This document shows, in pieces, positions 5,674 to 56,225 of a stretch of DNA of 64,000 nt; the first letter of the stretch is position 1; every line of letters starts with the position of its first letter. A program made the position numbers and the translations under genes. Location of the stretch: NCBI GenBank assembly GCA_963719235.1, contig CAVRBS010000014.1:64688-128687 (forward strand), in the 5' to 3' direction. The notes below the pieces were generated by a model. The model searched no databases, was not told the DNA's origin, and saw only the letters and a list, made by a program, of their open reading frames with translations. This stretch comes from an uncultured Bacteroidales bacterium. GTDB lineage: Bacteria; Bacteroidota; Bacteroidia; Bacteroidales; VadinHA17.

Positions 5674-6279
5674 ATGAAAACAGTTAATGCAACTATTATT
5701 ACAGTTCTGGCTTTGTTAATAATACAATCTTTCAATACAATGGCTTTCGCAAAAACAGAAAAACAAAAATACACTGTTGTTCATAAGGAGAAGGAATTCG
5801 AGATCAGGTTCTATCCTTCCGCTGTCCTTGCAACAGTATATACTGATGCCAGATCATATAAAGAGCTGGCCAACCCGGGTTTCAGGAAGCTTGCCGGATA
5901 TATTTTCGGCGGCAATGAATCGGACACTAAAATATCAATGACATCACCCGTGCACATGGATATTAACAGCCCGTCATCTTCCATGAGCTTTGTTATGCCA
6001 TCGTCATACAATGAGGAAAACCTTCCGAAACCAGACGATCCTGGTGTAATTATCGAAAGAACCGAGGATGTACATGTCGCCGTAATAACTTTCGGCGGGT
6101 ATGCCTCAGATAATGACATAAAGAAATACTCGGAAAAATTAAGAACCCTGCTCGACGAAAAAGGGATCACCCGGTACGGAAATTTCAGGTATCTGGGATA
6201 CAATCCTCCTTTCCAGCCTTTTGGCAGAAAAAATGAAATAATAGTATCTGTTCAATGGCCTGAAAACAGTTCTAAATGA
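5674..6279 (+). CDS. SOUL heme-binding family protein (secreted)
   Basis: ORF 5584..6279. ATG 5674 gives the signal peptide MKTVNATIITVLALLIIQSFNTMAFA. The SOUL/HBP profile is present: YTVVHKEKEFEIRFYP, GFRKLAGYIFGGN, ITFGGYASD, YNPPFQPFGRKNEI. Confidence 0.8.
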   Translation: MKTVNATIITVLALLIIQSFNTMAFAKTEKQKYTVVHKEKEFEIRFYPSAVLATVYTDARSYKELANPGFRKLAGYIFGGNESDTKISMTSPVHMDINSPSSSMSFVMPSSYNEENLPKPDDPGVIIERTEDVHVAVITFGGYASDNDIKKYSEKLRTLLDEKGITRYGNFRYLGYNPPFQPFGRKNEIIVSVQWPENSSK

Positions 6280-44136: not shown

Positions 44137-44261
44137 GGTACGGTTGTGATGTATAACTGATGTTAAAAATAAGACTTTCTATCTTTCGTTATCTTACTTT
44201 CTTGCCCTGTAATAAGAAAGTACAATTTAAAAGGCATCACCTCCCTTTAAATGTCTTGCTG

Positions 44262-44568
44262 CATCAGGGTGTCGCCCTAATAACGGATAAGGAAGTGCTG
44301 CCGATATGGGCTCTGGTAGTGGTTTCGAAGGCTAAAACCCTGTCAGTGATTTTTCTACCTCCATCTGTATCCGTTGAAATATTTGCCAACCCATAACTAT
44401 AAGCTAATCCAAATTGGATAGTTATAATTTCTATTCCTTCGCAGAACTCATTGCATTACTCCCAATTGGATAGGCAAATGTAACCTGGCCTTAGCGAGTT
44501 CTTAAACTGACATTTTCTTGTGCAATAATATTTATTGACATTGAAAATACCAACATGCTTAATAGCAT
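44262..44568 (-). pseudogene. Remnant of the 5' third of a paralog of repeat-OMP gene 19382..20398
   Basis: 44440-44568 aligns with 20270-20398 (ggtaggcaaatgtaacctg...catgcttaata). The minus-strand translation MLLSMLVFSMSINIIAQENVSLRTR*GQVTFAYPIGS... parallels MPKTFLLSIMVFLMSLSLVAQENNSLKTRKVQVTFAYPIGS, and then decays. Confidence 0.55.
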
Positions 44569-45039
44569 TATTTTTTTTTCTTTTAGGATATTACATTCAT
44601 AATAATACTTGCTAACGGCCTGGCAATAAAGAGGGCCGAACGTTAAGTCCCGCCATGTTATTTCGGGATAACGGGGAGCCAGCTTGAAGGTGTGGCATGT
44701 TACCCGACGACAACACCGTCGTGGTCATGGTATCACCAGTACTAATGTGTCTTAAGTGCGGGAACAAATTACAAAAAATGTGACATCCTGCCCTGCAAGG
44801 CGGAAAGCAACTTACCCTGATCGCCTGTGTTAGGTGGTCGTGGCTATTATTTATATGTTTATTTTATTGTATTAATGCTATTTTATATTTGAACATTTAC
44901 ATGTCTGTTTTACGGAATGTTAAAGGCAGAAAACAAATACTATGATGCCAATATGTTTGTCTGAGAAGAATTAGCAACAGCTTGAAGATTATTTTAATTA
45001 ATAGTCAGGTACTGCGGGAAAAACAGATCTCTAAAATGA

Positions 45040-45567
45040 TCAAAACTTAAGGCAGATTTTTGCTCCATTCCCTGTAAGATTAAGATCCATTGTTACAGCA
45101 GTTTTTCCTGATCGAGAGCGCATTTCAGAATTGTAAAGATTTATTGACTTATTAAAATTTGAAGACGACATAAGAAAGAATGGAACGCTGCCAAGCATAA
45201 CCACGGCACCACTTATTAAAAAGGTACCTGCTGTCTTTGAATATTCATCCGACTGAGCTAGGTCTCCTTCATTAACAGCACTTGCACTCATTATTTCATA
45301 AACAAGTCCAACTCCGATAAGAGCCGTTCCTCCAATCATCACCGACTGACCAATGATAGCATTGGTTTTGTAAGCCTTATAAGCACCTTCAGAAGAAGGA
45401 TTTGATTTAAGCAAATTGCCCAGGTCTTTATAGGCAATTGGATTACCCTCATTAAGATAGGTTTTTTTTAGTCCTTTCTTTTGGGTAGTTAACGGTCCAG
45501 TCTCCTGTGCAAAAACAGCAATGGAGAAAACTAATAAGAGAATTGAAGAAATTGCATGTCTTTTCAT
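45040..45567 (-). CDS. Hypothetical protein with signal peptide and two hydrophobic segments (AT-rich gene)
   Basis: 175-aa ORF starting MKRHAISSILLLVFSIAVFAQE. I recognise no family. Confidence 0.5.
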   Translation of the reverse strand: MKRHAISSILLLVFSIAVFAQETGPLTTQKKGLKKTYLNEGNPIAYKDLGNLLKSNPSSEGAYKAYKTNAIIGQSVMIGGTALIGVGLVYEIMSASAVNEGDLAQSDEYSKTAGTFLISGAVVMLGSVPFFLMSSSNFNKSINLYNSEMRSRSGKTAVTMDLNLTGNGAKICLKF

Positions 45568-45758
45568 TTCTATTAAGGTTTAGTTCGGCTTAAAGATAGC
45601 TTTCTTCTTGTAAACATTCTATTCTTATTTACAATATTAAGTAATAATTTGATTTGCAATTTTCTTGGGACATTTTATTAATTAAGAGTTTACGATGTTA
45701 ATTTGATAATTACTAATCAGCAATGACTTTTATATATATTTTTTTTAATAATAATTAG

Positions 45759-45786
45759 GTTTGCATTGCAAACAACATTATATTTG
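45759..45786 (+). promoter_or_regulatory. Perfect 15-nt palindrome (candidate operator) followed 5 nt later by a TAnnTTTG -7 box
   Basis: gtttgcaTtgcaaac lies at 45759-45773 and tatatttg at 45779-45786, 33 nt before ATG 45819. A further tttgcaat half-site occurs near 45650. Confidence 0.4.
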
Positions 45787-45818
45787 CAATATTGTTTATT
45801 GTTTAAATATGAAAAAAC

Positions 45819-46388
45819 ATGAAAAATTCAGAAAGATTAGATCTAAACCAAAGCTTAGATATTATATCTAATGCAATTCAAAAAACTAAAGAAAACATTA
45901 AAGAGCAAAGTTTTTATTATTTACTGTGGGGGTGGTTAGCTTCAATAGCAGCTATTATGAACTATATTATTCTAAATTTCACTGACTTTGCAAATCACTG
46001 GTTACCTTGGGCCATTCTAATGCCGTTAGGAGGGATTGTTACGATGGTTTACTCAATAAAAAATAATAAGCAGAAGAGCTACGAAACTTATCTGGATATG
46101 TTCTTAAAATATCTGTGGATATCTATTGGAGTTTCTTTCATTTTAGCTGTATTCATATCCCTGATATTGAAAATAAGTCCAGCAATAATTGTATTATTAT
46201 TGGCGGGAATTGGAACTTTGATATCAGGCCTGGCAATGAAATTTAAACCTCTGATTTTGGGAGGAATATTATTCTTTCTGTTTTCATTATCTTCCGTCTT
46301 TGTTGACAACTCGTTCAAACTGTTAATATTTGCGATTGCAATTACTATTGGTTATTTAATACCTGCCTATATTTTAAAAAGACAATAA
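45819..46388 (+). CDS. Hypothetical multi-pass membrane protein
   Basis: 189-aa ORF with four to five hydrophobic helices. A small HTH gene follows 11 nt downstream. Confidence 0.55.
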   Translation: MKNSERLDLNQSLDIISNAIQKTKENIKEQSFYYLLWGWLASIAAIMNYIILNFTDFANHWLPWAILMPLGGIVTMVYSIKNNKQKSYETYLDMFLKYLWISIGVSFILAVFISLILKISPAIIVLLLAGIGTLISGLAMKFKPLILGGILFFLFSLSSVFVDNSFKLLIFAIAITIGYLIPAYILKRQ

Positions 46389-46399
46389 TGTAGTTAGCT

Positions 46400-46684
46400 A
46401 TGTATGGGAAAATAGATAGTGTACTCAATCAACCAATAAGACTAGCAATTATTTCTATTTTGATAAAAGTTCAATCAGCAGATTTTAATTTCTTAAAAGA
46501 GAGCACTGGAACAACTCAAGGAAACCTAAGTCATCAATTAAAAAAGCTGAAGGAAGCTGAATATATTGAAATTGATAAGAAATTTGTAAATAATTATCCG
46601 AGAACAATTTGCAGAATAACTAATAAAGGAAAGTCAGCATTTGAAAATTATGTTGAACAAATGAAATTATATCTTAATCTTTAG
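46400..46684 (+). CDS. Winged-helix transcriptional regulator (HTH_34-like)
   Basis: 94 aa with LNQPIRLAIISIL...FNFLKESTGTTQGNLSHQLKKLKEAEYIEI...TNKGKSAFENY, typical of the small wHTH regulators paired with membrane proteins. Confidence 0.7.
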   Translation: MYGKIDSVLNQPIRLAIISILIKVQSADFNFLKESTGTTQGNLSHQLKKLKEAEYIEIDKKFVNNYPRTICRITNKGKSAFENYVEQMKLYLNL

Positions 46685-47009
46685 GATTATTTTCCAGATA
46701 TCAATATTTAATCCTTACAAATCAATGCATAATAGGATCTATTATGCCCGCCTAAAAATATTCCAGAAATCATTTCTTAAATTTATAGAAGTCAGCATGG
46801 CAGCGATAGCAATTGCTCTGCTCATCAGGTCTTGTTTCTTTCGAGATATTAATTAAATCAGCATTTAAAGCGCAACCCTCACTTTTTAAAATAACTATTG
46901 CATCTGCTTCACTGTAACGATGTGAAAATCCGGAGTCACTCAATTTACTTGTACCAATTATAGTGGTTACTTAATCTGTTATAATGTCAAATTTCATTTT
47001 CTGAACATT

Positions 47010-47283
47010 ACAATTCACATAAGACGAATTTTTCAGATTGAAGTCAAGTTTTATTTAGGATCAGGACTCAGAGTGCTGACTTTGCGGACTTTCGGCTTTT
47101 AGGACTTTCGACTGTCTTAAATGAAATTGCCGTCATAGTCCATCCGGGGATCGGCATTGGCCAGATCGATGACCCTGTGGAAGCCGATATTGCCGTTCTT
47201 AAAGGCTTTGAATCTTTCATTATCTTACTTTCTTGTCCTGCCAGAAGAAAGTATAATTTTAGAAAGCTTCACTCCCTGTAATC
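47010..47283 (-). pseudogene. Internal-deletion remnant of a second copy of the metallophosphoesterase locus
   Basis: 47116-47201 aligns with 43361-43447 (last ~28 codons, ...NGNIGFHRVIDLANADPRMDYDGNFI*). 47205-47283 aligns with 44174-44250 (the upstream leader). 47010-47057 aligns with 43260-43299. About 0.7 kb of coding sequence is missing between them. Confidence 0.75.
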
Positions 47284-47284
47284 A

Positions 47285-47821: not shown

Positions 47822-48037
47822 TTATAAAACTCCTTCCTGTTAGTAGTGATCCAAAATTCCTTGACCAAGATAAATAAAATAAAATTTATTGTCTGCTAAA
47901 AATAAATCCCCATTTGATTTATTATTTCCAGGATTGTGGTGAACCGGCGTTGTCAGGCGAGTTCACGCTCGCGTAAGGCGAAGTGATGTAGAACCTGACA
48001 GAATTTATTCTACTTTTATAAATCAAACTCATCATTG

Positions 48038-48259
48038 ATGCCGCAGCTTGGTAAAATATTAATAATCACAGGCATAATTCTGGTCGTTGCCGGGCTGATA
48101 ATATATTTTGCAGGTAACAGGTTTGCCTGGTTCGGCCATCTTCCCGGCGATATACGGATCGAAAGAGAAAACATGAGACTTTATTTCCCGGTAACAACAA
48201 TGCTCATACTAAGCATAGTGGCTTCCGTAGTTTTCTGGCTGATAAAAAAGTTGTTTTAG
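48038..48259 (+). CDS. DUF2905-family small membrane protein
   Basis: MPQLGKILIITGIILVVAGLIIY...HLPGDIRIERENMRLYFPVTTMLILSIV. The LPGDI motif and two helices are diagnostic. Confidence 0.8.
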   Translation: MPQLGKILIITGIILVVAGLIIYFAGNRFAWFGHLPGDIRIERENMRLYFPVTTMLILSIVASVVFWLIKKLF

Positions 48260-48280
48260 AAAATTCATCCGGCAATAACC

Positions 48281-48718
48281 ATGGACGCTCTCTTTATAAA
48301 GACATTCCTATTGCTGCTTCTGCCTGCCACGATCATTGACGCACAGGAAGTTGAGGTTACCATCACCGGGATCAGAAATACAGAGGGACAGATTGTCATA
48401 GGTGTTTTCAAAGACAGTGAAAGCTATAAGACAGAGGAGACATTCCTAACCATAAGTTTTAACAAGGATATCAGCCCTGACGGCGAGATGAGAGTTCACT
48501 TCAGGCTTGAACCCGGTGTCTATGGCCTCTGCCTGCTGGATGACGAGGACAGAGATGGCATTATGCATTATAATTTCCTGGGGATGCCGAAAGAAGGATT
48601 TGGGTTCTCGGATCTTTACTTTACAGGATTAATAAAGCCAACGTTCGACTCGTTCAAATTCACTATTGCCAAGGGCCAGCAGAAGAGTATAAATATCAGG
48701 GTGAGATATATTCTTTGA
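48281..48718 (+). CDS. DUF2141-family secreted protein
   Basis: It has a signal peptide plus ITGIRNTEGQIVIGVFKDSESY and GVYGLCLLDDEDRDGIMHYNFLGMPKEGFGFS. Confidence 0.8.
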   Translation: MDALFIKTFLLLLLPATIIDAQEVEVTITGIRNTEGQIVIGVFKDSESYKTEETFLTISFNKDISPDGEMRVHFRLEPGVYGLCLLDDEDRDGIMHYNFLGMPKEGFGFSDLYFTGLIKPTFDSFKFTIAKGQQKSINIRVRYIL

Positions 48719-48800
48719 ACAGCCAGCAATGTTAAAAAGCAAGGAGCATGCTGCACGGGGCATGTTGACGAACGCAGTGAGGAAATCCCGCGAAGCGGGA

Positions 48801-48918
48801 GGGCAAGGGGCGCGGGGCATGGAGCAAGGGGTAAGGAGCAGGGGTAAGGAGCAAGGGGTAATGTGAATATCGAACAGGGAACATCGATTTTTGAAGCCTG
48901 AAGTGATTGCAGGACTTC
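48801..48918. repeat. Dispersed intergenic repeat (second copy 59839-59935) containing a 13/14-nt x3 tandem array
   Basis: The shared blocks are ggggcatggagcaagggg ... tgaatatcgaaca[ga]gga ... cgatttttgaag[ct]ctgaa ... tgcaggac. The array ggagca(a)ggggtaa x3 lies at 48821-48861. Confidence 0.7.
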
Positions 48919-48923
48919 AGATC

Positions 48924-50831
48924 TCAGACAGAATAGACTCTCCTGGATGCAGCCTTCGCGAAATCATCTATCTGCCGCTGCATGTCGGTTTTTTGGTGGC
49001 TGACTGAATCCCCGGACTTCCAGACTATTCTGCCCAATGTCTGGATCAACATGTCGATATCTGATTCGCTGTTACCAATACCAATGCTAACCCTGGCGAG
49101 ACCGGGAAACCGTAACCAGGGTATGAGAATCGCTATCAGTCGTTGGAACCATTCCAGTGCAGGGGGAACACCGACAAGATGCTTGACTAAAATATGAGCG
49201 CAATGACAGCCGCATCGTATACCTATCCCACCCTGCTCAGCCAGTTCTCTGGCCACCCTGGGTGACAACATGCCCTTAAGGACAAATGAAATTACACCAC
49301 CCTTCCGGTCGAACCTGGGCGAGTTTGGATCTTTGATACCGTATATAGTCAGTCCGGGTACCTGTGCCAGTCCGTGAAGAGCATGTGCAGTCAGAGCCTG
49401 TTCTTCCTTTATTATCAGGTCCATGCCAATGCGCCGTAACAGCACGATCGCCTTTCCCAATGCGGCAATGCCACCTGCGTTTTCTTCACCTGAATGCCGT
49501 ATCATCTCCATCTCAGCCGGGCTGTAATTAAGGAGTCCCTTTCTTACTACAAGCACTCCGCTACCGAAGGGTGCATACACTTTATGGGCAGAAAAGGCGA
49601 GATAGTCAATACAGCATTCTTCCATATCAACCTTCCGGTGAGCGACCATCTGCGCCGCATCAACAAGCAGTCGTGCCCCATATTGGTGAGCGATACGGCT
49701 GATCTCCGCCATATCGTTAAATACACCGAGGACATTAGAAGCACCACAAACGGCCACAAGCCTGATACGTTTCTTCCCGTGCTGACACGCCTGATTATAA
49801 CTGTTCAGGACAGAATTTAGCTGTTTCAGGTTCACAAACCCCTCACTATCAATTGATAGCCTTATAAGAGGAAAATGGGTGGCAACGCGCCAGGGAAGAT
49901 CGTTGGAGGAATGTTCGAGGAGTGTAGCAAGCAAAACGGGCTCAGTATCCTGTTCAGAGTTACGACTTAGGCTTTCAGCTGCCAGGTTGATGGCTTCCGT
50001 AGTGTTAATAGTAAATATAATATCATAGTCAGTACCTGGTGCACCGAGGAACCCTGCGCATAGTGACCTGACCTCCTCATTTATCTCCTGCTGTACCTCA
50101 GGGGTCTGGTGCCATGTCTGGCGGACAGCCTCCCATACCGGCATGAATGTAGGTGTGCTGGCGCTGTTGTCGAGGTGTATATAAGGTCTGGGACCCAGGG
50201 TTGTAGGGATCAGTACGGTGCGGCCTATCAGAGTCTGCCTGAGCTCATTAATAAGCCCCCTGCCGGAGTAATTATCCAGTTCATCATGATAAAGAATTTT
50301 GTGTGCTGGCAAGCTGTCTGCGGATTTGTTCAGGAAGATATCCTTTCCGTACTGCCGGATCAGAAGCAGCGCTCTGGCAAACGCGATGACGTTAATGATT
50401 GCCGGCGTGCCAGCCTCGAACCTGTCCGGAGCATCAGCCCATACGACCCACTCAGGAGAGACAATCCTGGTCGTACCTCCTCCGGTCTGAAAGGGGGTGC
50501 CTTTAGGCAGTGCCTTTCTCTTAACAGCCAATGCTCTGACACCCAGTGGCAAACCTGTGTCGAAGCTTGAAACACTGTGATAATCCTTTGACTTCAGCAG
50601 CGCCTTAAGAGATGTTTCTCTTCTGGGTGTGCAGAAGATGACAACGTACCTGCCTTTGTCGAGACCCAGATGATCAAGGATAATATCCCTGGCCTGCTCG
50701 TACAAATACGTTGATACAACTGAGTTGTGACCGCTGCCGCGGTGAACGTTGGCATAAGTCTCCAGCGCAGCATGCACTCCCCGTTCCAGTTCCGGGAACT
50801 TATCCGGGTGGTCTCTTTTTATGCCTGTCAT
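48924..50831 (-). CDS. Aminotransferase class V-fold PLP-dependent enzyme (cysteine desulfurase/SufS-like), 635 aa with extra N-terminal module
   Basis: The core has HLDNSASTP, FTINTTEAINLA, LVDAAQMVAH and the PLP lysine in AFSAHKVYAPFG. The N-terminal ~175 aa repeat SufS-like end segments (ANVHRGSGHNS; GGGTTRIV...RFEAGTPAIINVIAFARAL). The start overlaps the stop of the upstream gene. Confidence 0.75.
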   Translation of the reverse strand: MTGIKRDHPDKFPELERGVHAALETYANVHRGSGHNSVVSTYLYEQARDIILDHLGLDKGRYVVIFCTPRRETSLKALLKSKDYHSVSSFDTGLPLGVRALAVKRKALPKGTPFQTGGGTTRIVSPEWVVWADAPDRFEAGTPAIINVIAFARALLLIRQYGKDIFLNKSADSLPAHKILYHDELDNYSGRGLINELRQTLIGRTVLIPTTLGPRPYIHLDNSASTPTFMPVWEAVRQTWHQTPEVQQEINEEVRSLCAGFLGAPGTDYDIIFTINTTEAINLAAESLSRNSEQDTEPVLLATLLEHSSNDLPWRVATHFPLIRLSIDSEGFVNLKQLNSVLNSYNQACQHGKKRIRLVAVCGASNVLGVFNDMAEISRIAHQYGARLLVDAAQMVAHRKVDMEECCIDYLAFSAHKVYAPFGSGVLVVRKGLLNYSPAEMEMIRHSGEENAGGIAALGKAIVLLRRIGMDLIIKEEQALTAHALHGLAQVPGLTIYGIKDPNSPRFDRKGGVISFVLKGMLSPRVARELAEQGGIGIRCGCHCAHILVKHLVGVPPALEWFQRLIAILIPWLRFPGLARVSIGIGNSESDIDMLIQTLGRIVWKSGDSVSHQKTDMQRQIDDFAKAASRRVYSV

Positions 50832-53008
50832 TCCGGCAGATTGAGCCTGCTGACCATATCCTTAAACCGGGGGTCGTCCCACAATATCTTCAGATTATTG
50901 TCATACCTTATCCATGGAATAAAATCCTGATGCATCCTGTAGGCTTCCTCGAGGAAATAGATTGCTTTATCCTTATCTTCCAGTGCGGCATAAATTTCGG
51001 CAAGTCCCCATACATTCCATGAATCAAGGTTTTTCTCCATCTCAGATGCAACCCCGATCGCATTCTCTTTCTGTCCGGCTCTGGCATATGCAATCCCAAG
51101 TCCCAAATTATAGCCTTCGGCAATCTCAAGTCCCTTTTTATGAATTTCGATAGCTTCAGAATACCTGCCCAACTCAGCATATGCTGATCCTTTCACATAA
51201 TAAGCCATGACATAGTTTGGGTCTAGCTGAAGAGTCTTATCAGCTTCGATAATTGCCTCCTCGTTATGGCCCATCCATAAATAGAGCCAGCTAAGATAAC
51301 CCTGCATCAACGGATCGGTAGGGTCAATCTCAATAGCGGTCCTCATAGCTTTTGTTGCTTTATCAACATTCCCCGAGAGAGTAAGAAACCATCCATAATG
51401 CGTAAAGGCTGTCGAGCTATTAGGATTTAGTTCCATAGCACGTTTCAAGTGATATTCAGCTTTAGCAAAATCCCATTCAGTGTAGAGATATCTTGTAGCA
51501 AGAACGACATGGGCATCAGCCATTGTTGAATCAAGCTCAAGGGCTTTCAGGGCATATGCTTTTGCCCTTTTGGAGGCTTCCTCTCCGATGCCTGCAGCGT
51601 GACCGCCTTCAGTGTATCCGATGGCAAGTTTAATATAAGGCAGCGGATTGGCCGGATCAATGGCCATAGCATCATTAAGATACTTTACACCCATCTGAAA
51701 TCCCTCGGGAGTCAGCTGACTCATATAATATTCACCGCGGGCGCAGGCTTTCAGGAGCTCGGGGTCCACGTACTTTTTCCCTGTGATCATGCTCTCTTCC
51801 CGGGGAGTGAGTTTGACCTTTACGCCATCGAGGATACGATTTAATATCTCGGGATATATGCCTGCCAGCTCCTTCCATGGCAGGCTGAAAGAAGAGCTCC
51901 AGATGTACTTTTCCTCAGGAAATGCTTCAACCAGCCGTACTTCCACGCGCAGGTTATCTTCACTGCCCCTGATTGATGATTCGACAATATGGTTAACACT
52001 GAGTTTTTTGGCTATCTGCTGAACGGATTCTTCACTATCCCTGAATTGCATAGTTGACTGTTTAGGTCTTACGACCAACCCGCTTACGGTATTTAGCGGA
52101 CCTATTATGTCGTCCTGAATTGTTTGGGGGATCCAGCCAAGATCAGGATTGCCGGTGAGGTTAGCGACAGGCATGATCGCTATTGCTTTTCTTACAGCAT
52201 CTTCTTCCTGTGTCTGGTTCTTCGATTTCCTCAGCCATCCGGGCCAGATGAGCAGCAAAATTGCCAGAGCGGCCACAGCCAGCAATGGCAGGATTTTGGA
52301 TGAAACTGTCCTTCTCCGGGCAGGGCCAACCTGAATAAAAGGCTTGCGGACGGCGGTGTGATCAGCCTGCTCCCTGGTCTGATAGGTTCTGGTTGCTCTT
52401 TTCTTCTCATCTGGGTGCACGCTGTAGATTATCTCCTTTATCGTATTTGCTACCTTGTTGATCTGGTCACGATAAAAAGTCCTATTAAGGTTCTTGTCAG
52501 GATTGTCAGAGGGAGTAAGCGGACGGTTCACGCCCGAGGCACTGTAGATAAAATCAATTGAACGGAGCCTGCCGCCCAGTTCTCTTTCAATGAGCTCTGT
52601 ATCTGACGTATCGAGCTCATGGATCTTAACAGGGATAATCCTGCTGCAGACGTTGCCTCCCGCCAGTTTAACATCTCTTCCGAGCTGGTCCCCGCCTGCC
52701 ATCTTGTTGAAAGCGACAAACTCATTCTGCCAGGCAAAGCTTTTGGGGTCACAATAGGTTTGTGAAATTACCGGAACAAAGACCAGTGACCTGAGTTTTG
52801 CCTCAAGGCTTTTATCCACATTATGGATCTCAAGCAGCCCGTCGGAGGGATTTTCGTCAAAATAGATTGAGACATCTTCCTTGAAAGTCGCATCAAGCTC
52901 TCTTTTCAGGTTGTCGACGAACTCGGTCACCCAGCCGTCGTACTTGTTGTCTTTCTGGCGATAGCTGATGAAGATGTCATACTCATAGCCAGGGATAATG
53001 CTTGCCAT
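50828..53008 (-). CDS. TIR domain - transmembrane - TolB-N-like - TPR repeat protein
   Basis: It has YEYDIFISYRQKDNKYDGWV...FVPVISQTY...SFAWQNEF (a TIR domain with a conserved Glu), the helix ILPLLAVAALAILLLIW, AIAIMPVANLTGNPD...LRVEVRLVEA, and then multiple TPRs to the C-terminus. Confidence 0.8.
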   Translation of the reverse strand: MASIIPGYEYDIFISYRQKDNKYDGWVTEFVDNLKRELDATFKEDVSIYFDENPSDGLLEIHNVDKSLEAKLRSLVFVPVISQTYCDPKSFAWQNEFVAFNKMAGGDQLGRDVKLAGGNVCSRIIPVKIHELDTSDTELIERELGGRLRSIDFIYSASGVNRPLTPSDNPDKNLNRTFYRDQINKVANTIKEIIYSVHPDEKKRATRTYQTREQADHTAVRKPFIQVGPARRRTVSSKILPLLAVAALAILLLIWPGWLRKSKNQTQEEDAVRKAIAIMPVANLTGNPDLGWIPQTIQDDIIGPLNTVSGLVVRPKQSTMQFRDSEESVQQIAKKLSVNHIVESSIRGSEDNLRVEVRLVEAFPEEKYIWSSSFSLPWKELAGIYPEILNRILDGVKVKLTPREESMITGKKYVDPELLKACARGEYYMSQLTPEGFQMGVKYLNDAMAIDPANPLPYIKLAIGYTEGGHAAGIGEEASKRAKAYALKALELDSTMADAHVVLATRYLYTEWDFAKAEYHLKRAMELNPNSSTAFTHYGWFLTLSGNVDKATKAMRTAIEIDPTDPLMQGYLSWLYLWMGHNEEAIIEADKTLQLDPNYVMAYYVKGSAYAELGRYSEAIEIHKKGLEIAEGYNLGLGIAYARAGQKENAIGVASEMEKNLDSWNVWGLAEIYAALEDKDKAIYFLEEAYRMHQDFIPWIRYDNNLKILWDDPRFKDMVSRLNLPE

Positions 53009-53056
53009 TGCAGTGTTTTTATTAAAAGAACGTTATTGTAAAGTCTTAATGTCAGT

Positions 53057-53088
53057 CAAATTTAAACCTTAATACCTTTAAAGTCAAG
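53057..53088 (-). promoter_or_regulatory. Candidate promoter of the TIR gene (TTGAC-N18-TAAATTTG)
   Basis: On the minus strand, TTGAC lies at 53087-53083 and TAAATTTG at 53064-53057, 49 nt upstream of ATG 53008. Confidence 0.4.
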
Positions 53089-53096
53089 CTGCGGAT

Positions 53097-53170
53097 GATC
53101 CGGCGGGCAAAACTTTTATGACTGTCAGATCCGGCGGGCAAAACTATTGTGACTGTCAGATCAGGCAGCA
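53097..53170. repeat. 31-nt tandem direct repeat, two full units plus a partial third
   Basis: Unit 1 is gatccggcgggcaaaacttttatgactgtca (53097-53127). Unit 2 is gatccggcgggcaaaactattgtgactgtca (53128-53158). A partial third, gatcaggcagcag, follows. Confidence 0.9.
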
Positions 53171-53174
53171 GATT

Positions 53175-53939
53175 TTACTGGAACAGGCTGCCGAGTACCG
53201 AGCCGGCCTCCTTGCCCTTGTTCCTGCCCATGGGTGCCAGGGCTCTTATCAGCTTGCGTATGGGCATCGACTGGAGCCATACCTTACCGGTGCCTCTCAT
53301 GGTAGCGAGGAATAATCCTTCACCGCCAAAAACCATCGATTTGAGGCTGCCGGTGGTCTCGATATCAAAATCGAGTGACGGCTCAAAAGCAACGACGCAC
53401 CCGGTGTCTATGCGGAGGGTCTCATTGTTCAGCTGTTTCTCTATTACCGTACCTCCGGCGTGGATGAAAGCTCTCCCGTCTCCCTCAAGCTTCTGGAGGA
53501 TGAAACCTTCGCCTCCGAGTATACCCGACCCTATCTTCTTGTTCAGGGTGACAGTCAGTTTTGTGCCAAAGGCAGCGCACAGGAAGCCATCTTTCTGCAC
53601 AAGAAGGGAGTTCCTGACTTCCCTGAGATCGACCGGTATGATCGTCCCGGGATAAGGAGCTGCAAAGGCCACCTTGCTTTTTCCGCTTCCCTTGTTTGTA
53701 AAGTGGGTCAGGAAAAGAGATTCACCGGTAAGCACGCGCGATCCGGCCTGGAGAAGTTTTCCCATCACTCCCTGTTCCGCCGAGGCGCCGTCACCCATCC
53801 TGGCTTCGAAAGTTATTCCCTGCTCCATGTAAACCATGGTGCCTGCCTCGGCTATGACCGTCTCGTTAGGATCGAGCTCGACCTCAACAAACTGAATGTC
53901 ATCGCCAATAATTTTGTAATCTAATTCATGTGATATCAT
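53175..53939 (-). CDS. AIM24/TIGR00266 (DUF124) family protein
   Basis: [38 protein letters not shown]...[23 protein letters not shown]...[13 protein letters not shown]. Confidence 0.85.
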
Positions 53940-54011: not shown

Positions 54012-54140
54012 AAAGGAGAAAGGAGAAAGGAGAAAGTCTGAAGGTCTGAGAGTCAGGAGAATTTGCGATTTGCGATTTGCGAATTGCGAATTAGCTGATT
54101 CTCAAATTCTTAATTCTAAATTCTTAATTCTTAATTCCTC
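54012..54140. repeat. Mosaic of four different 7-8-nt tandem arrays in a divergent intergenic spacer
   Basis: The blocks are (aaggaga)x3 at 54012-54034, gtctgaag/gtctgaga/gtcaggaga, (atttgcg)x3 plus (aattgcg)x1-2 at 54061-54092, and (attcttaa / ttctaaa) units at 54100-54140. Confidence 0.9.
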
Positions 54141-55313: not shown

Positions 55314-56225
55314 ATGAAAACAAGAAGTTCCTTTTCAGGATTGATCTTTTTTGTCATCATTATCATTGGCGCAGTATTTACATATCTCAGTTATAATGCG
55401 CAAAACGTGACAGGAGCCATATGGATCGGAGTGATCACCTTTGTGGTTGCCCTCATCGTTTCATCTGCAATAAAGATTGCAGATCAATGGGAAAAGGCAG
55501 TGGTGTTACGGTTAGGTAAATTCCATTCACTAAGGGGTCCGGGATTGTTTTTCATTATACCGATAGTAGATACCGTAGCTTACTGGATTGACCTGCGCGT
55601 CATAAATACTACTTTCACGGCGGAAAAAACTCTTACAAAAGATACTGTGCCTGTTGATGTGGACGCAGTACTGTTCTGGAAAGTTATTGATGCCAAGAAA
55701 GCAGCTCTTGAAATAGCTGAATATAAGAGCGCAATAAACTGGGCCTCACAAACAGCACTGCGTGATGTTATCGGCAAGACGATGCTCTCGGAGATGCTGG
55801 AAGGCAGAGATAAAATGAGTCATATACTGCAGAAGATAATTGATGAACGTACCGAACCCTGGGGAATAAATGTAATATCCGTGGAGGTCAAAGATGTCAA
55901 TATTCCCTCTGCACTGCAGGATGCTATGTCAATGCAGGCCCAGGCAGAGAGAGAACGCCAGGCAAGGGTGATCCTGGGCGATTCTGAACGACAGGTGGCA
56001 GAGAAGTTCGGAGAAGCTGCCAAAACATACCATGATGATCCTGTTGCACTTCACCTGAGGGCAATGAACATGCTTTATGAAGGTCTGAAGACCAACTCAA
56101 CAATAGTTATAGTTCCCAGCTCAGCTCTTGAGACCATGCAGTTAGGTGGCCTGGCAGGGATTTCCGCCTTAACCATGGAACTGAATAAGCAGCCTAAGAA
56201 GAAAGAGAGTGAGCCCGGGAAATAG
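55314..56225 (+). CDS. SPFH/band-7 (stomatin/slipin-like) membrane protein
   Basis: It has an N-terminal hairpin helix, then QWEKAVVLRLGKF..RGPGLFFIIP..D...DLRV....F..E..TKD.VPV.VDAV..WKV, followed by a coiled coil. Confidence 0.85.
   Translation: MKTRSSFSGLIFFVIIIIGAVFTYLSYNAQNVTGAIWIGVITFVVALIVSSAIKIADQWEKAVVLRLGKFHSLRGPGLFFIIPIVDTVAYWIDLRVINTTFTAEKTLTKDTVPVDVDAVLFWKVIDAKKAALEIAEYKSAINWASQTALRDVIGKTMLSEMLEGRDKMSHILQKIIDERTEPWGINVISVEVKDVNIPSALQDAMSMQAQAERERQARVILGDSERQVAEKFGEAAKTYHDDPVALHLRAMNMLYEGLKTNSTIVIVPSSALETMQLGGLAGISALTMELNKQPKKKESEPGK

Follow-up and report, generated by a model that had tools for sequence, protein, structure and literature searches.

The locus studied here raises the question of whether three neighbouring genes of an uncultured Bacteroidales bacterium (VadinHA17; assembly GCA_963719235.1, contig CAVRBS010000014.1, positions 64,688-128,687 of the forward strand) form a functional unit. 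The whole analysed stretch of 64,000 nt is referred to as the window, and positions are given in its numbering. The genes encode a protein of the AIM24/TIGR00266 family, a predicted membrane receptor with an N-terminal TIR-like domain, and a long class-V enzyme dependent on pyridoxal 5'-phosphate (PLP). A first-pass annotation of the sequence had described them as a translationally coupled module. The present analysis favours, with a confidence somewhat above even, a juxtaposition of three autonomous gene families, in which the receptor and PLP genes form a lineage-specific operon without demonstrated functional dependence. This reading builds on the observed architecture, folds and conservation pattern of the proteins and on the observed lack of co-occurrence. 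The three open reading frames (ORFs) are co-directional as described, all on the minus strand:

53175..53939, minus strand: AIM24/TIGR00266-family gene, 254 aa; a separate upstream neighbour outside the coupled pair
50828..53008, minus strand: receptor gene, 726 aa, with TIR-like, transmembrane (TM), TolB-N-like and TPR parts (ORF)
48924..50831, minus strand: gene of the long class-V PLP enzyme, 635 aa (ORF)
50828..50831, minus strand: ATGA, in which the TGA stop of the receptor gene overlaps the ATG start of the PLP gene (read directly from the sequence)

Direct reading of the sequence confirmed the ATGA overlap. Its ATG is the first possible start codon of the PLP ORF, and since the conserved part of the PLP family starts about 10 residues downstream, the overlap is independent of the choice of start codon. 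The proposed coupling therefore stands for the receptor and PLP genes, but not for the AIM24 gene, which ends 166 bp before the receptor gene with a promoter-like site between them.

The co-occurrence of the genes was assessed in two scans, each covering the best-scoring 80 loci, namely 80 species genomes for the PLP enzyme and 80 metagenome loci for the TIR domain of the receptor. The 80 PLP genomes, with enzymes of 54-69% identity, belong to Bacteroidota, Chloroflexota, Acidobacteriota and Actinomycetota. Only two of them, L001 and L002, have the receptor and AIM24 genes nearby, for which tblastn and hidden Markov models (HMMs) agree, and the other 78 show heterogeneous neighbours. On the receptor side, where the TIR domains are 64-93% identical, the PLP enzyme or AIM24 is present at a single locus, L081. 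HMM searches for divergent partners in both 80-locus sets found none. The pairing is thus absent from 78 of the 80 PLP genomes and from 79 of the 80 receptor loci, which contradicts the notion of a conserved three-gene module.

Four further loci (L161, L163, L164 and L166) were added through look-ups of the closest PLP proteins, which, counting the window, brings the linked loci to eight. All that carry a taxonomic label are Bacteroidales metagenome-assembled genomes, and the shared flanks contain radical SAM, Band_7, DUF2141 and hemerythrin genes. In a neighbour-joining (NJ) tree, the PLP genes of six linked loci (the window, L001, L002, L081, L161 and L163) form one clade. The ATGA overlap is kept in these six and in L166, i.e. 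in seven of the eight linked loci, and is replaced in L164 by a 125-bp spacer with a heptamer repeat. A PLP homologue that is 71% identical to that of the window lies in an unrelated context (L165). The linkage is confined to one Bacteroidales clade, and a gene pair that is not syntenic in other genomes, which the first-pass annotation had named as the sign of a coincidental adjacency, is largely what was found. Since the genes occur together in one narrow lineage only, a dedicated system is improbable. Based on the co-occurrence and clade comparisons, the real unit is a two-gene operon of one lineage, with AIM24 as a bystander.

The family assignment of the AIM24 protein was borne out, as PF01987 (E=6.2e-71, 238.8 bits against a cut-off of 25.7) and TIGR00266 (127.8 bits against 96.6, full-length match) both score above their curated cut-offs. 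Two features were located in the region between this gene and the receptor gene:

53057..53087, minus strand: promoter-like site for the receptor-PLP operon, TTGACT, 17 nt, TAAATT, overlapping TAAATTTG (sigma-70-type scan, 53087..53059)
53097..53166, no strand: 31-bp tandem duplication, 2.3 copies (Tandem Repeats Finder score 119, 92% matches)

The promoter-like block TTGAC..TAAATTTG lies about 50 nt upstream of the receptor ATG, and the block GCAGCTTGACTTTAA..TAAATTTGA is kept in five relatives, including L163, whose upstream gene differs. The TAAATTTG element agrees with the Bacteroidota -7 motif TAnnTTTG, and the block as a whole with the -33/-7 promoter type of Bacteroidota. From the sequence of this region and of the gene junction, we infer that the receptor and PLP genes are co-transcribed in the linked lineage. 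The AIM24 gene is missing in L163, where a 251-aa ORF without an AIM24 or other Pfam match takes its place, and in L164 it is parted from the receptor gene by two inserted genes. AIM24 is a separately promoted bystander and not part of the receptor-PLP unit.

Short repeats are a further feature of these intergenic regions. The 31-bp unit is present as a single copy in the relatives, and the 2.3 copies of the window lie just upstream of the promoter-like site. Tandem arrays of 7-8 bp (AAAGGAG, ATTTGCG, AATTCTT) occupy positions 54012-54137 in the divergent radical-SAM/AIM24 intergenic region. In L164, the receptor and PLP genes are separated by a heptamer array of similar kind (AACCGAA/C, positions 5907-6000).

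The sequence divergence between the linked loci is unevenly distributed. Between the window and L001, nucleotide identity amounts to 85-95% between positions 56000 and ~50650, falls to 66-73% over the DUF2141 gene and the 3' four-fifths of the PLP gene, and is back at 87% in the hemerythrin gene. At the protein level, this corresponds to 69% identity for the PLP enzyme, 97% for AIM24 and 89% for the receptor. Compared with L001, L002, L081 and L161, the mosaic region covers window positions 47900-50500; against L161, the divergence is confined to the DUF2141 region. This mosaic divergence looks as if an allele had been replaced by recombination, with a breakpoint that falls within the PLP gene. 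A xenologous PLP gene was considered in view of the 69% identity against 89-97% for the flanks. A replacement from outside the clade was rejected, however, because the PLP genes of the six linked loci stay together in the NJ tree. Recombination within the clade, with a breakpoint about 300-450 bp inside the PLP gene, is the better fit.

For the receptor, the following parts were distinguished:

52418..53008, minus strand: divergent TIR-like domain, residues 1-197, with E96 in FAWQNEF (AlphaFold 2, Foldseek and hhalign; sub-threshold in Pfam)
52232..52294, minus strand: single TM helix, residues 239-259, ILPLLAVAALAILLLIWPGWL (Kyte-Doolittle)
51674..52225, minus strand: membrane-proximal alpha/beta domain of the CadC-sensor/TolB-N/LpoB type, residues 262-445 (AlphaFold 2 and Foldseek)
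50831..51673, minus strand: TPR array with a TPR end-of-group domain, residues 446-726 (multiple Pfam TPR families)

Only the TPRs of the receptor reach normal Pfam thresholds. For the N-terminal domain, which begins MASIIPGYEYDIFISYRQKD and had been called a TIR domain from its sequence, TIR_2 (PF13676) gave 16.7-17.2 bits (E 0.008-0.011) against a gathering score of 28. Weak TIR_2 matches were obtained for 23 of 36 relatives (best E=0.0019). The domain also stays below the NCBIfam TIR thresholds, with weak similarity to ThsB (E=0.011) and FxsC (E=0.007). A profile of the 36 relatives searched against PDB sequences gave no TIR confirmation from sequence alone (best E ~0.7-1, flax L6/L7 TIR), and a comparison with the SARM1 TIR by hhalign, in which an approximate sequence served as the target, aligned only the 12-residue beta-A motif. 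Because this sequence-only confirmation stayed weak, structure prediction and a comparison with L6 were used.

An AlphaFold 2 (AF2) model of residues 1-210, built on the 36 relatives, reached a pLDDT of 86.7 and a pTM of 0.87. Its only poorly predicted segment, residues 54-62, is at the expected position of the BB-loop in a TIR structure. The 14 best Foldseek matches in the PDB are all TIR domains, including RUN1, RPP1, AbTir, SARM1 and MyD88 (E 1e-4 to 7e-4, probability 1.00, TMt 0.55-0.65), and TLR and IL-1R TIRs are also found among the structural matches. Against a flax L6-type TIR, for which the tail of the target sequence was approximate, hhalign gave a probability of 77% and E=2e-5 and placed E96 on the Glu of 'LMEL'. 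The domain has the beta-A motif YD(I/V)F(I/L)S(Y/F)R and comprises about 195 residues, of which about 50 positions are at least 97% conserved; with its extra beta-hairpins, it exceeds a canonical TIR by about 55 residues. Neither W93 nor E96 varies among 221 relatives. The conserved Glu in FAWQNEF pointed out in the first pass thus holds, and a loss of catalytic residues on proper alignment, which would have spoken against the TIR call, was not observed, as the comparison with the plant L6-type TIR pairs this Glu with the catalytic one. Based on the AF2 model and its Foldseek matches, the L6 alignment and the W93/E96 invariance, a TIR fold with a plausible catalytic Glu can be assigned, within a distinct, longer TIR subfamily.

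With the catalytic TIRs (RUN1/RPP1/L6, SARM1, AbTir, ThsB), the domain shares the flavodoxin-like fold and the beta-A motif, and its invariant Glu is the candidate counterpart of their catalytic Glu. In contrast to them, it is sub-threshold in profile searches, extended to about 195 residues by extra beta-hairpins, anchored to a membrane sensor, and without a ThsA, STING, NLR or Argonaute partner. Its Trp-to-Glu spacing is +3 (W93, E96), compared to the canonical TIR spacing of +4.

Residues 239-259 are the sole 19-residue Kyte-Doolittle window above 1.8 in the receptor, in agreement with the one TM helix noted previously. The N-terminal flank of this helix is rich in Arg and Lys (RRR..K; ARRRTVSSK), and no signal peptide was found in the receptor sequence. 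The predicted topology is N-in and single-pass with a C-terminal extracytoplasmic sensor. For residues 262-445, the AF2 model (pLDDT 92.8) confirmed the TolB-N-like module and sharpened it to a CadC-type sensor. The best Foldseek matches are the CadC periplasmic domain structures 3ly7, 3ly8 and 3ly9 (E 2e-5 to 6e-5, TMq 0.60-0.65), followed by the TolB N-domain, LpoB, GNA1162 and PelC. The NCBIfam CadC and HilA/EilA models gave sub-threshold matches over residues 256-566, with the CadC model NF007540 reaching E=4e-5 and 22.6 bits over residues 256-564 against a cut-off of 400. The long TPR array was equally recovered, with strong matches to TPR_2 (5.6e-18) and, above its cut-off, to the TPR_END_plus model NF047558 (9.4e-19), which covers the end-of-group domain.

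Taken together, these domains and folds correspond to a ToxR/CadC-type one-component build with a TIR in place of the DNA-binding head. As in CadC and ToxR, an N-terminal cytoplasmic output is connected by one TM helix to a C-terminal periplasmic sensor, and the ectodomain superposes on that of CadC. The differences concern the output, which is TIR-like instead of winged-helix, with no Trans_reg_C match at the receptor N-terminus, and the distal part, which is a long TPR array with an end-of-group domain. The receptor works like ToxR/CadC receptors but is no member of that family. Distant relatives of the ectodomain (24-31% identity) carry PF00486 (Trans_reg_C) or bear the source names adenylate cyclase, TolB-like protein or Ser/Thr kinase, which fits a portable sensor module. 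The ectodomain is also distantly related to the COG5616 ('TolB-like') and TPR modules found on adenylate cyclases, winged helix-turn-helix regulators and Ser/Thr kinases, although the output fused to it in the receptor is a TIR. The receptor-like cyclases CyaD1, CyaD2 and CyaK of Sinorhizobium meliloti may have this COG5616-type architecture. For these cyclases, a response to a plant signal has been reported (PMC5498481).

The family to which the receptor belongs is large. HMMER, run in full over 1.84 billion representatives, yielded matches in 1160, 808 and 504 clusters at 50% identity for E<=1e-3, 1e-10 and 1e-30, respectively. Among the best 150 matches, the TIR-like domain nearly always occupies residues 1-197, and most proteins have 680-900 aa. 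Source names place the family in Bacteroidota (Porphyromonadaceae, Flammeovirgaceae, Chitinophagaceae). For 76 full-length members from the metagenome loci, the N-domain is 61-90% identical to that of the window (median 71%), compared to a median of 27% for the ectodomain, and exactly one TM segment at residues ~220-250 is present in 64 of them. Paralogues frequently lie side by side, and tandem arrays of two to five of them occur at L089 (five), L114 (four), L112, L115, L139, L141, L142, L147 and L148. Within these arrays, N-domains are 63-90% identical and ectodomains mostly 24-47%. A few recently duplicated array pairs have ectodomains of 74-81% identity. Recurrent neighbours of the receptor genes are limited to further receptor paralogues (98 copies in 68 loci); all-against-all ORF clustering of the 80 receptor loci revealed no other. 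This combination of a frozen TIR with variable ectodomains suggests many inputs that feed into one conserved cytoplasmic reaction or partner. No published description of the receptor family or of the long class-V desulfurase family was found in the literature searched.

This pattern resembles that of animal Toll-like receptors, which likewise cross the membrane once and combine a solenoid-repeat ectodomain outside the cell with a TIR in the cytoplasm, and which are multi-copy with diversified ectodomains and a conserved TIR. Unlike in Toll-like receptors, the TIR of the bacterial receptor is N-terminal, so that the polarity is opposite, and the TPR and CadC-like domains replace the leucine-rich repeats. 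The likeness is to be read as an analogy only, and common descent of the whole architecture is not indicated.

The PLP enzyme was divided into two parts:

50187..50831, minus strand: N-terminal extension of ~215 aa, a putative remnant of a second SufS-like domain (profile and SufS alignment)
48924..50186, minus strand: complete class-V (SufS-like) catalytic domain with K417 (49581-49583) and C544 (49200-49202) (Aminotran_5)

Residues 219-595 match positions 2-371 of the Aminotran_5 profile (PF00266, 9e-77). SufS models are closest to the enzyme, yet every NCBIfam cut-off is missed, with 256.5 bits against 475.1 for the sufS model TIGR01979, 186 against 661 for PRK09295 and 155 against 607 for CsdA. 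SufS is the best match among both families and PDB entries, which upholds the earlier description as a SufS-like, 635-aa class-V enzyme. Full-length homologues (620-690 aa, 64-79% identical) are present in Bacteroidota, Chloroflexota, Acidobacteriota and Actinomycetota, and the long enzyme occurs in at least 582 species genomes. In 12 cross-phylum homologues from these four phyla, H307, D391, Q394, H416, K417, R539, C542, H543, C544 and R580 are invariant. These residues align with the SufS active site (SAHK417, RCGCHC544AH, R580), and they presumably have the same roles as in SufS, i.e. PLP Lys, catalytic Cys and substrate Arg. The enzyme therefore resembles type II SufS/CsdA in its PLP Lys417, the R-x-G-x-H-C-A loop with Cys544, and the conserved His307, Asp391/Gln394 and Arg580. 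It differs from them in its length of 635 aa compared to ~405-420 and in its core-less, SufS-like N-terminal 215 aa. The catalytic loop R-C-G-C-H-C-A-H (residues 540-546, window 49194-49214) contains the extra invariant Cys542, at a position where SufS has a His. Located two residues from the catalytic Cys, Cys542 could matter for persulfide handling.

The N-terminal extension is conserved over its full length across phyla. Its residues 95-170 match positions 205-280 of the Aminotran_5 profile, and residues 95-156 align with residues 237-298 of the SufS structure 8d8s. It keeps the SufS-specific 'ANVHRG' (helix-loop, residues 23-60) and 'GGG...RFEAGTP' motifs, and the PLP-binding core between them is absent. 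Compared with SufS, the C-terminal catalytic domain lacks about 19 residues in the region of SufS residues ~250-292, and it does not contain 'NVHRG'. From these alignments, we infer that the extension is a vestigial second protomer, which would supply in cis the elements that SufS dimers supply across their interface. The cargo desulfurase of Family 2A encapsulins is similar in its length of ~620-650 aa and its SufS-like C-terminal domain (NF041166, 6.5e-60). However, the PLP enzyme scores only 203.9 bits against the NF041166 cut-off of 800, and its extension is conserved and SufS-derived, whereas the N-terminus of the encapsulin cargo is a disordered targeting region. No encapsulin shell gene was found as a recurrent neighbour in the 80 PLP loci.

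Clustering of the neighbours in these 80 loci gave no cluster present in more than 10 of them. Recurrent neighbours are DUF4395, DUF4386, DUF6326, SAM methyltransferase, dienelactone hydrolase (DLH) and carotenoid genes. No sufE/sufU, sufBCD or csdE neighbours were found in the 80 loci, in which not every neighbour was domain-scanned. The possibility raised earlier that the enzyme is a housekeeping desulfurase with its own conserved context elsewhere does not agree with this lack of any conserved context. In L075 (Aquimarina sp. Aq78), the sole case among the 80, a 405-aa class-V/SufS-like paralogue lies on the same strand about 850 bp upstream of the long PLP gene.

The proposed explanation treats the two proteins separately. 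In the receptor, the ectodomain would bind an extracytoplasmic ligand or envelope partner, and binding would shift the oligomeric state of the cytoplasmic TIR domains. This change could then switch on NAD+ cleavage or the formation of an NAD-derived signal via the invariant Glu96. NAD+ chemistry is favoured by the invariant Glu and by catalytic TIRs as the best matches of the model, with scaffolding as the alternative. The PLP enzyme, whose active-site residues are intact, would be a SufS-like (type II-like) Cys or Sec desulfurase. It may act as an accessory enzyme, sporadic over several phyla, that makes persulfide for some acceptor. In one Bacteroidales lineage, the two genes would have become a single, co-expressed operon with a shared promoter and the ATGA overlap.

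Several points weigh against this explanation. As only the best-scoring 80 loci per scan were covered, more distant co-occurrences could be missed. The ATGA overlap is kept in the seven loci despite divergence of the receptor to 81% and of the PLP enzyme to 69-75%, and it has also persisted through what appears to be a replacement of most of the PLP gene by recombination. Such retention speaks for some selective benefit of co-expression in the lineage concerned. Furthermore, the TM-scores to solved TIRs are modest (0.45-0.65), the domain has the additional length of about 55 residues, and its catalytic competence is deduced only from one aligned Glu and conservation. Receptor and PLP enzyme could accordingly be a true lineage-specific functional pair, in which the enzyme acts downstream of the receptor or supplies it with a cofactor or ligand (S/Se), or in which the receptor, on sensing a cue from the envelope or from outside the cell, regulates how much the desulfurase puts out. 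Such a pair would be in line with the 4-bp overlap in seven of eight linked loci and the shared conserved promoter-like site, with a junction that is kept even though the 3' four-fifths of the PLP gene and DUF2141 are at 66-73% nucleotide identity against 85-95% for the flanks, and with the monophyly of the six linked PLP genes in the NJ tree. It is nevertheless considered unlikely, since neither scan showed co-occurrence beyond the clade, the two genes of L164 are set apart by a 125-bp spacer, the 71%-identical homologue of L165 lies in an unrelated context, and each family is abundant without the other. Alternatively, the TIR-like domain may be non-enzymatic and form a conserved oligomerisation or adaptor surface, comparable to animal TLR/MyD88, that recruits an unlinked cytoplasmic partner. 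Conservation of about 50 positions at 97% or more goes beyond the needs of an active site and is compatible with a large protein-protein interface, MyD88, TLR and IL-1R TIRs are among the structural matches, and no partner gene lies nearby. Since none is encoded near the receptor, such a partner would have to be a conserved gene elsewhere. This alternative is tentative and falls clearly short of probable, since E96, which aligns to the catalytic position, is as invariant as the Trp before it in 221 sequences and the best structural matches are the catalytic TIRs RUN1, RPP1, AbTir and SARM1.

A role in anti-phage defence also has to be considered, as bacterial TIR domains are often defence NADases. 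The TIR could be an NAD+-depleting abortive-infection effector, and the desulfurase could have a DndA/SspA-like role in DNA phosphorothioation. PADLOC searches with each of the three proteins and with the isolated TIR domain returned only generic or insignificant matches, so that membership in a known defence system was rejected. For the full receptor, it reported nothing beyond the TPR-only PDC-M71B (E=0.0027). The weak ThsB similarity of the TIR domain (E=0.011 in PADLOC) and that to FxsC (E=0.007), together with the SspA (1.9e-34) and DndA (2.7e-32) matches of the PLP enzyme, could be taken as hints of such a role. However, the latter reflect generic class-V similarity, and SufS models score far higher. 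No DndB-E, SspB-D, ThsA or other partner genes were found in the window neighbourhood or in the gene tables of the relatives. The receptor mass is mostly extracytoplasmic and thereby ill-suited to sensing intracellular phage, and the family resides in chromosomal tandem arrays with housekeeping-type neighbours. Because of the missing model match and partner genes, the ordinary neighbourhood and the outward-facing sensor, a defence role is highly improbable. The earlier remark that the pairing could not be matched to a described defence or signalling system agrees with the PADLOC result. At the speculative end, the large Bacteroidota family of transmembrane TIR proteins might be a counterpart of Toll-like-receptor logic. 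Tandem-expanded, hypervariable ectodomains, each with its own extracytoplasmic cue, would then drive a near-invariant TIR to produce an NAD-derived messenger or to deplete NAD+. In the lineage of the window, the receptor would in addition have acquired the long SufS-like enzyme as a dedicated partner expressed together with it. This combined scenario is regarded as quite doubtful.

Under the preferred reading of three autonomous families, the parts are members of known superfamilies, with the architecture of the receptor and the 'one and a half' desulfurase as variants not yet characterised, and their pairing is local. A true module would link TIR signalling to sulfur mobilisation, for which we know of no precedent, but the evidence speaks against a general link. 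The receptor family is the more interesting part, with at least 500 clusters in which a near-invariant TIR-type domain is wired via one TM helix to a fast-diverging periplasmic sensor. So far, TIR domains of bacteria have been described almost exclusively from cytoplasmic defence enzymes or secreted effectors. With this family, bacterial TIR biology would also include the sensing of external conditions across the membrane, and the 200-residue domain with an E96A mutant would allow clean tests. A second, smaller lead is the long desulfurase, a conserved single-chain 'one and a half' SufS.

The wider neighbourhood of the locus is ordinary and comprises radical SAM, Band_7, penicillin amidase, hemerythrin, DUF2141 and metallophosphoesterase genes. 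A low-GC stretch at 44137-47284 (35% vs ~46%) contains genes for a CD225-like membrane protein, a 189-aa membrane protein and an HTH_34 regulator. L001 and L002 do not have this stretch, and their hemerythrin gene directly adjoins the metallophosphoesterase gene. The low-GC stretch is probably an insertion.

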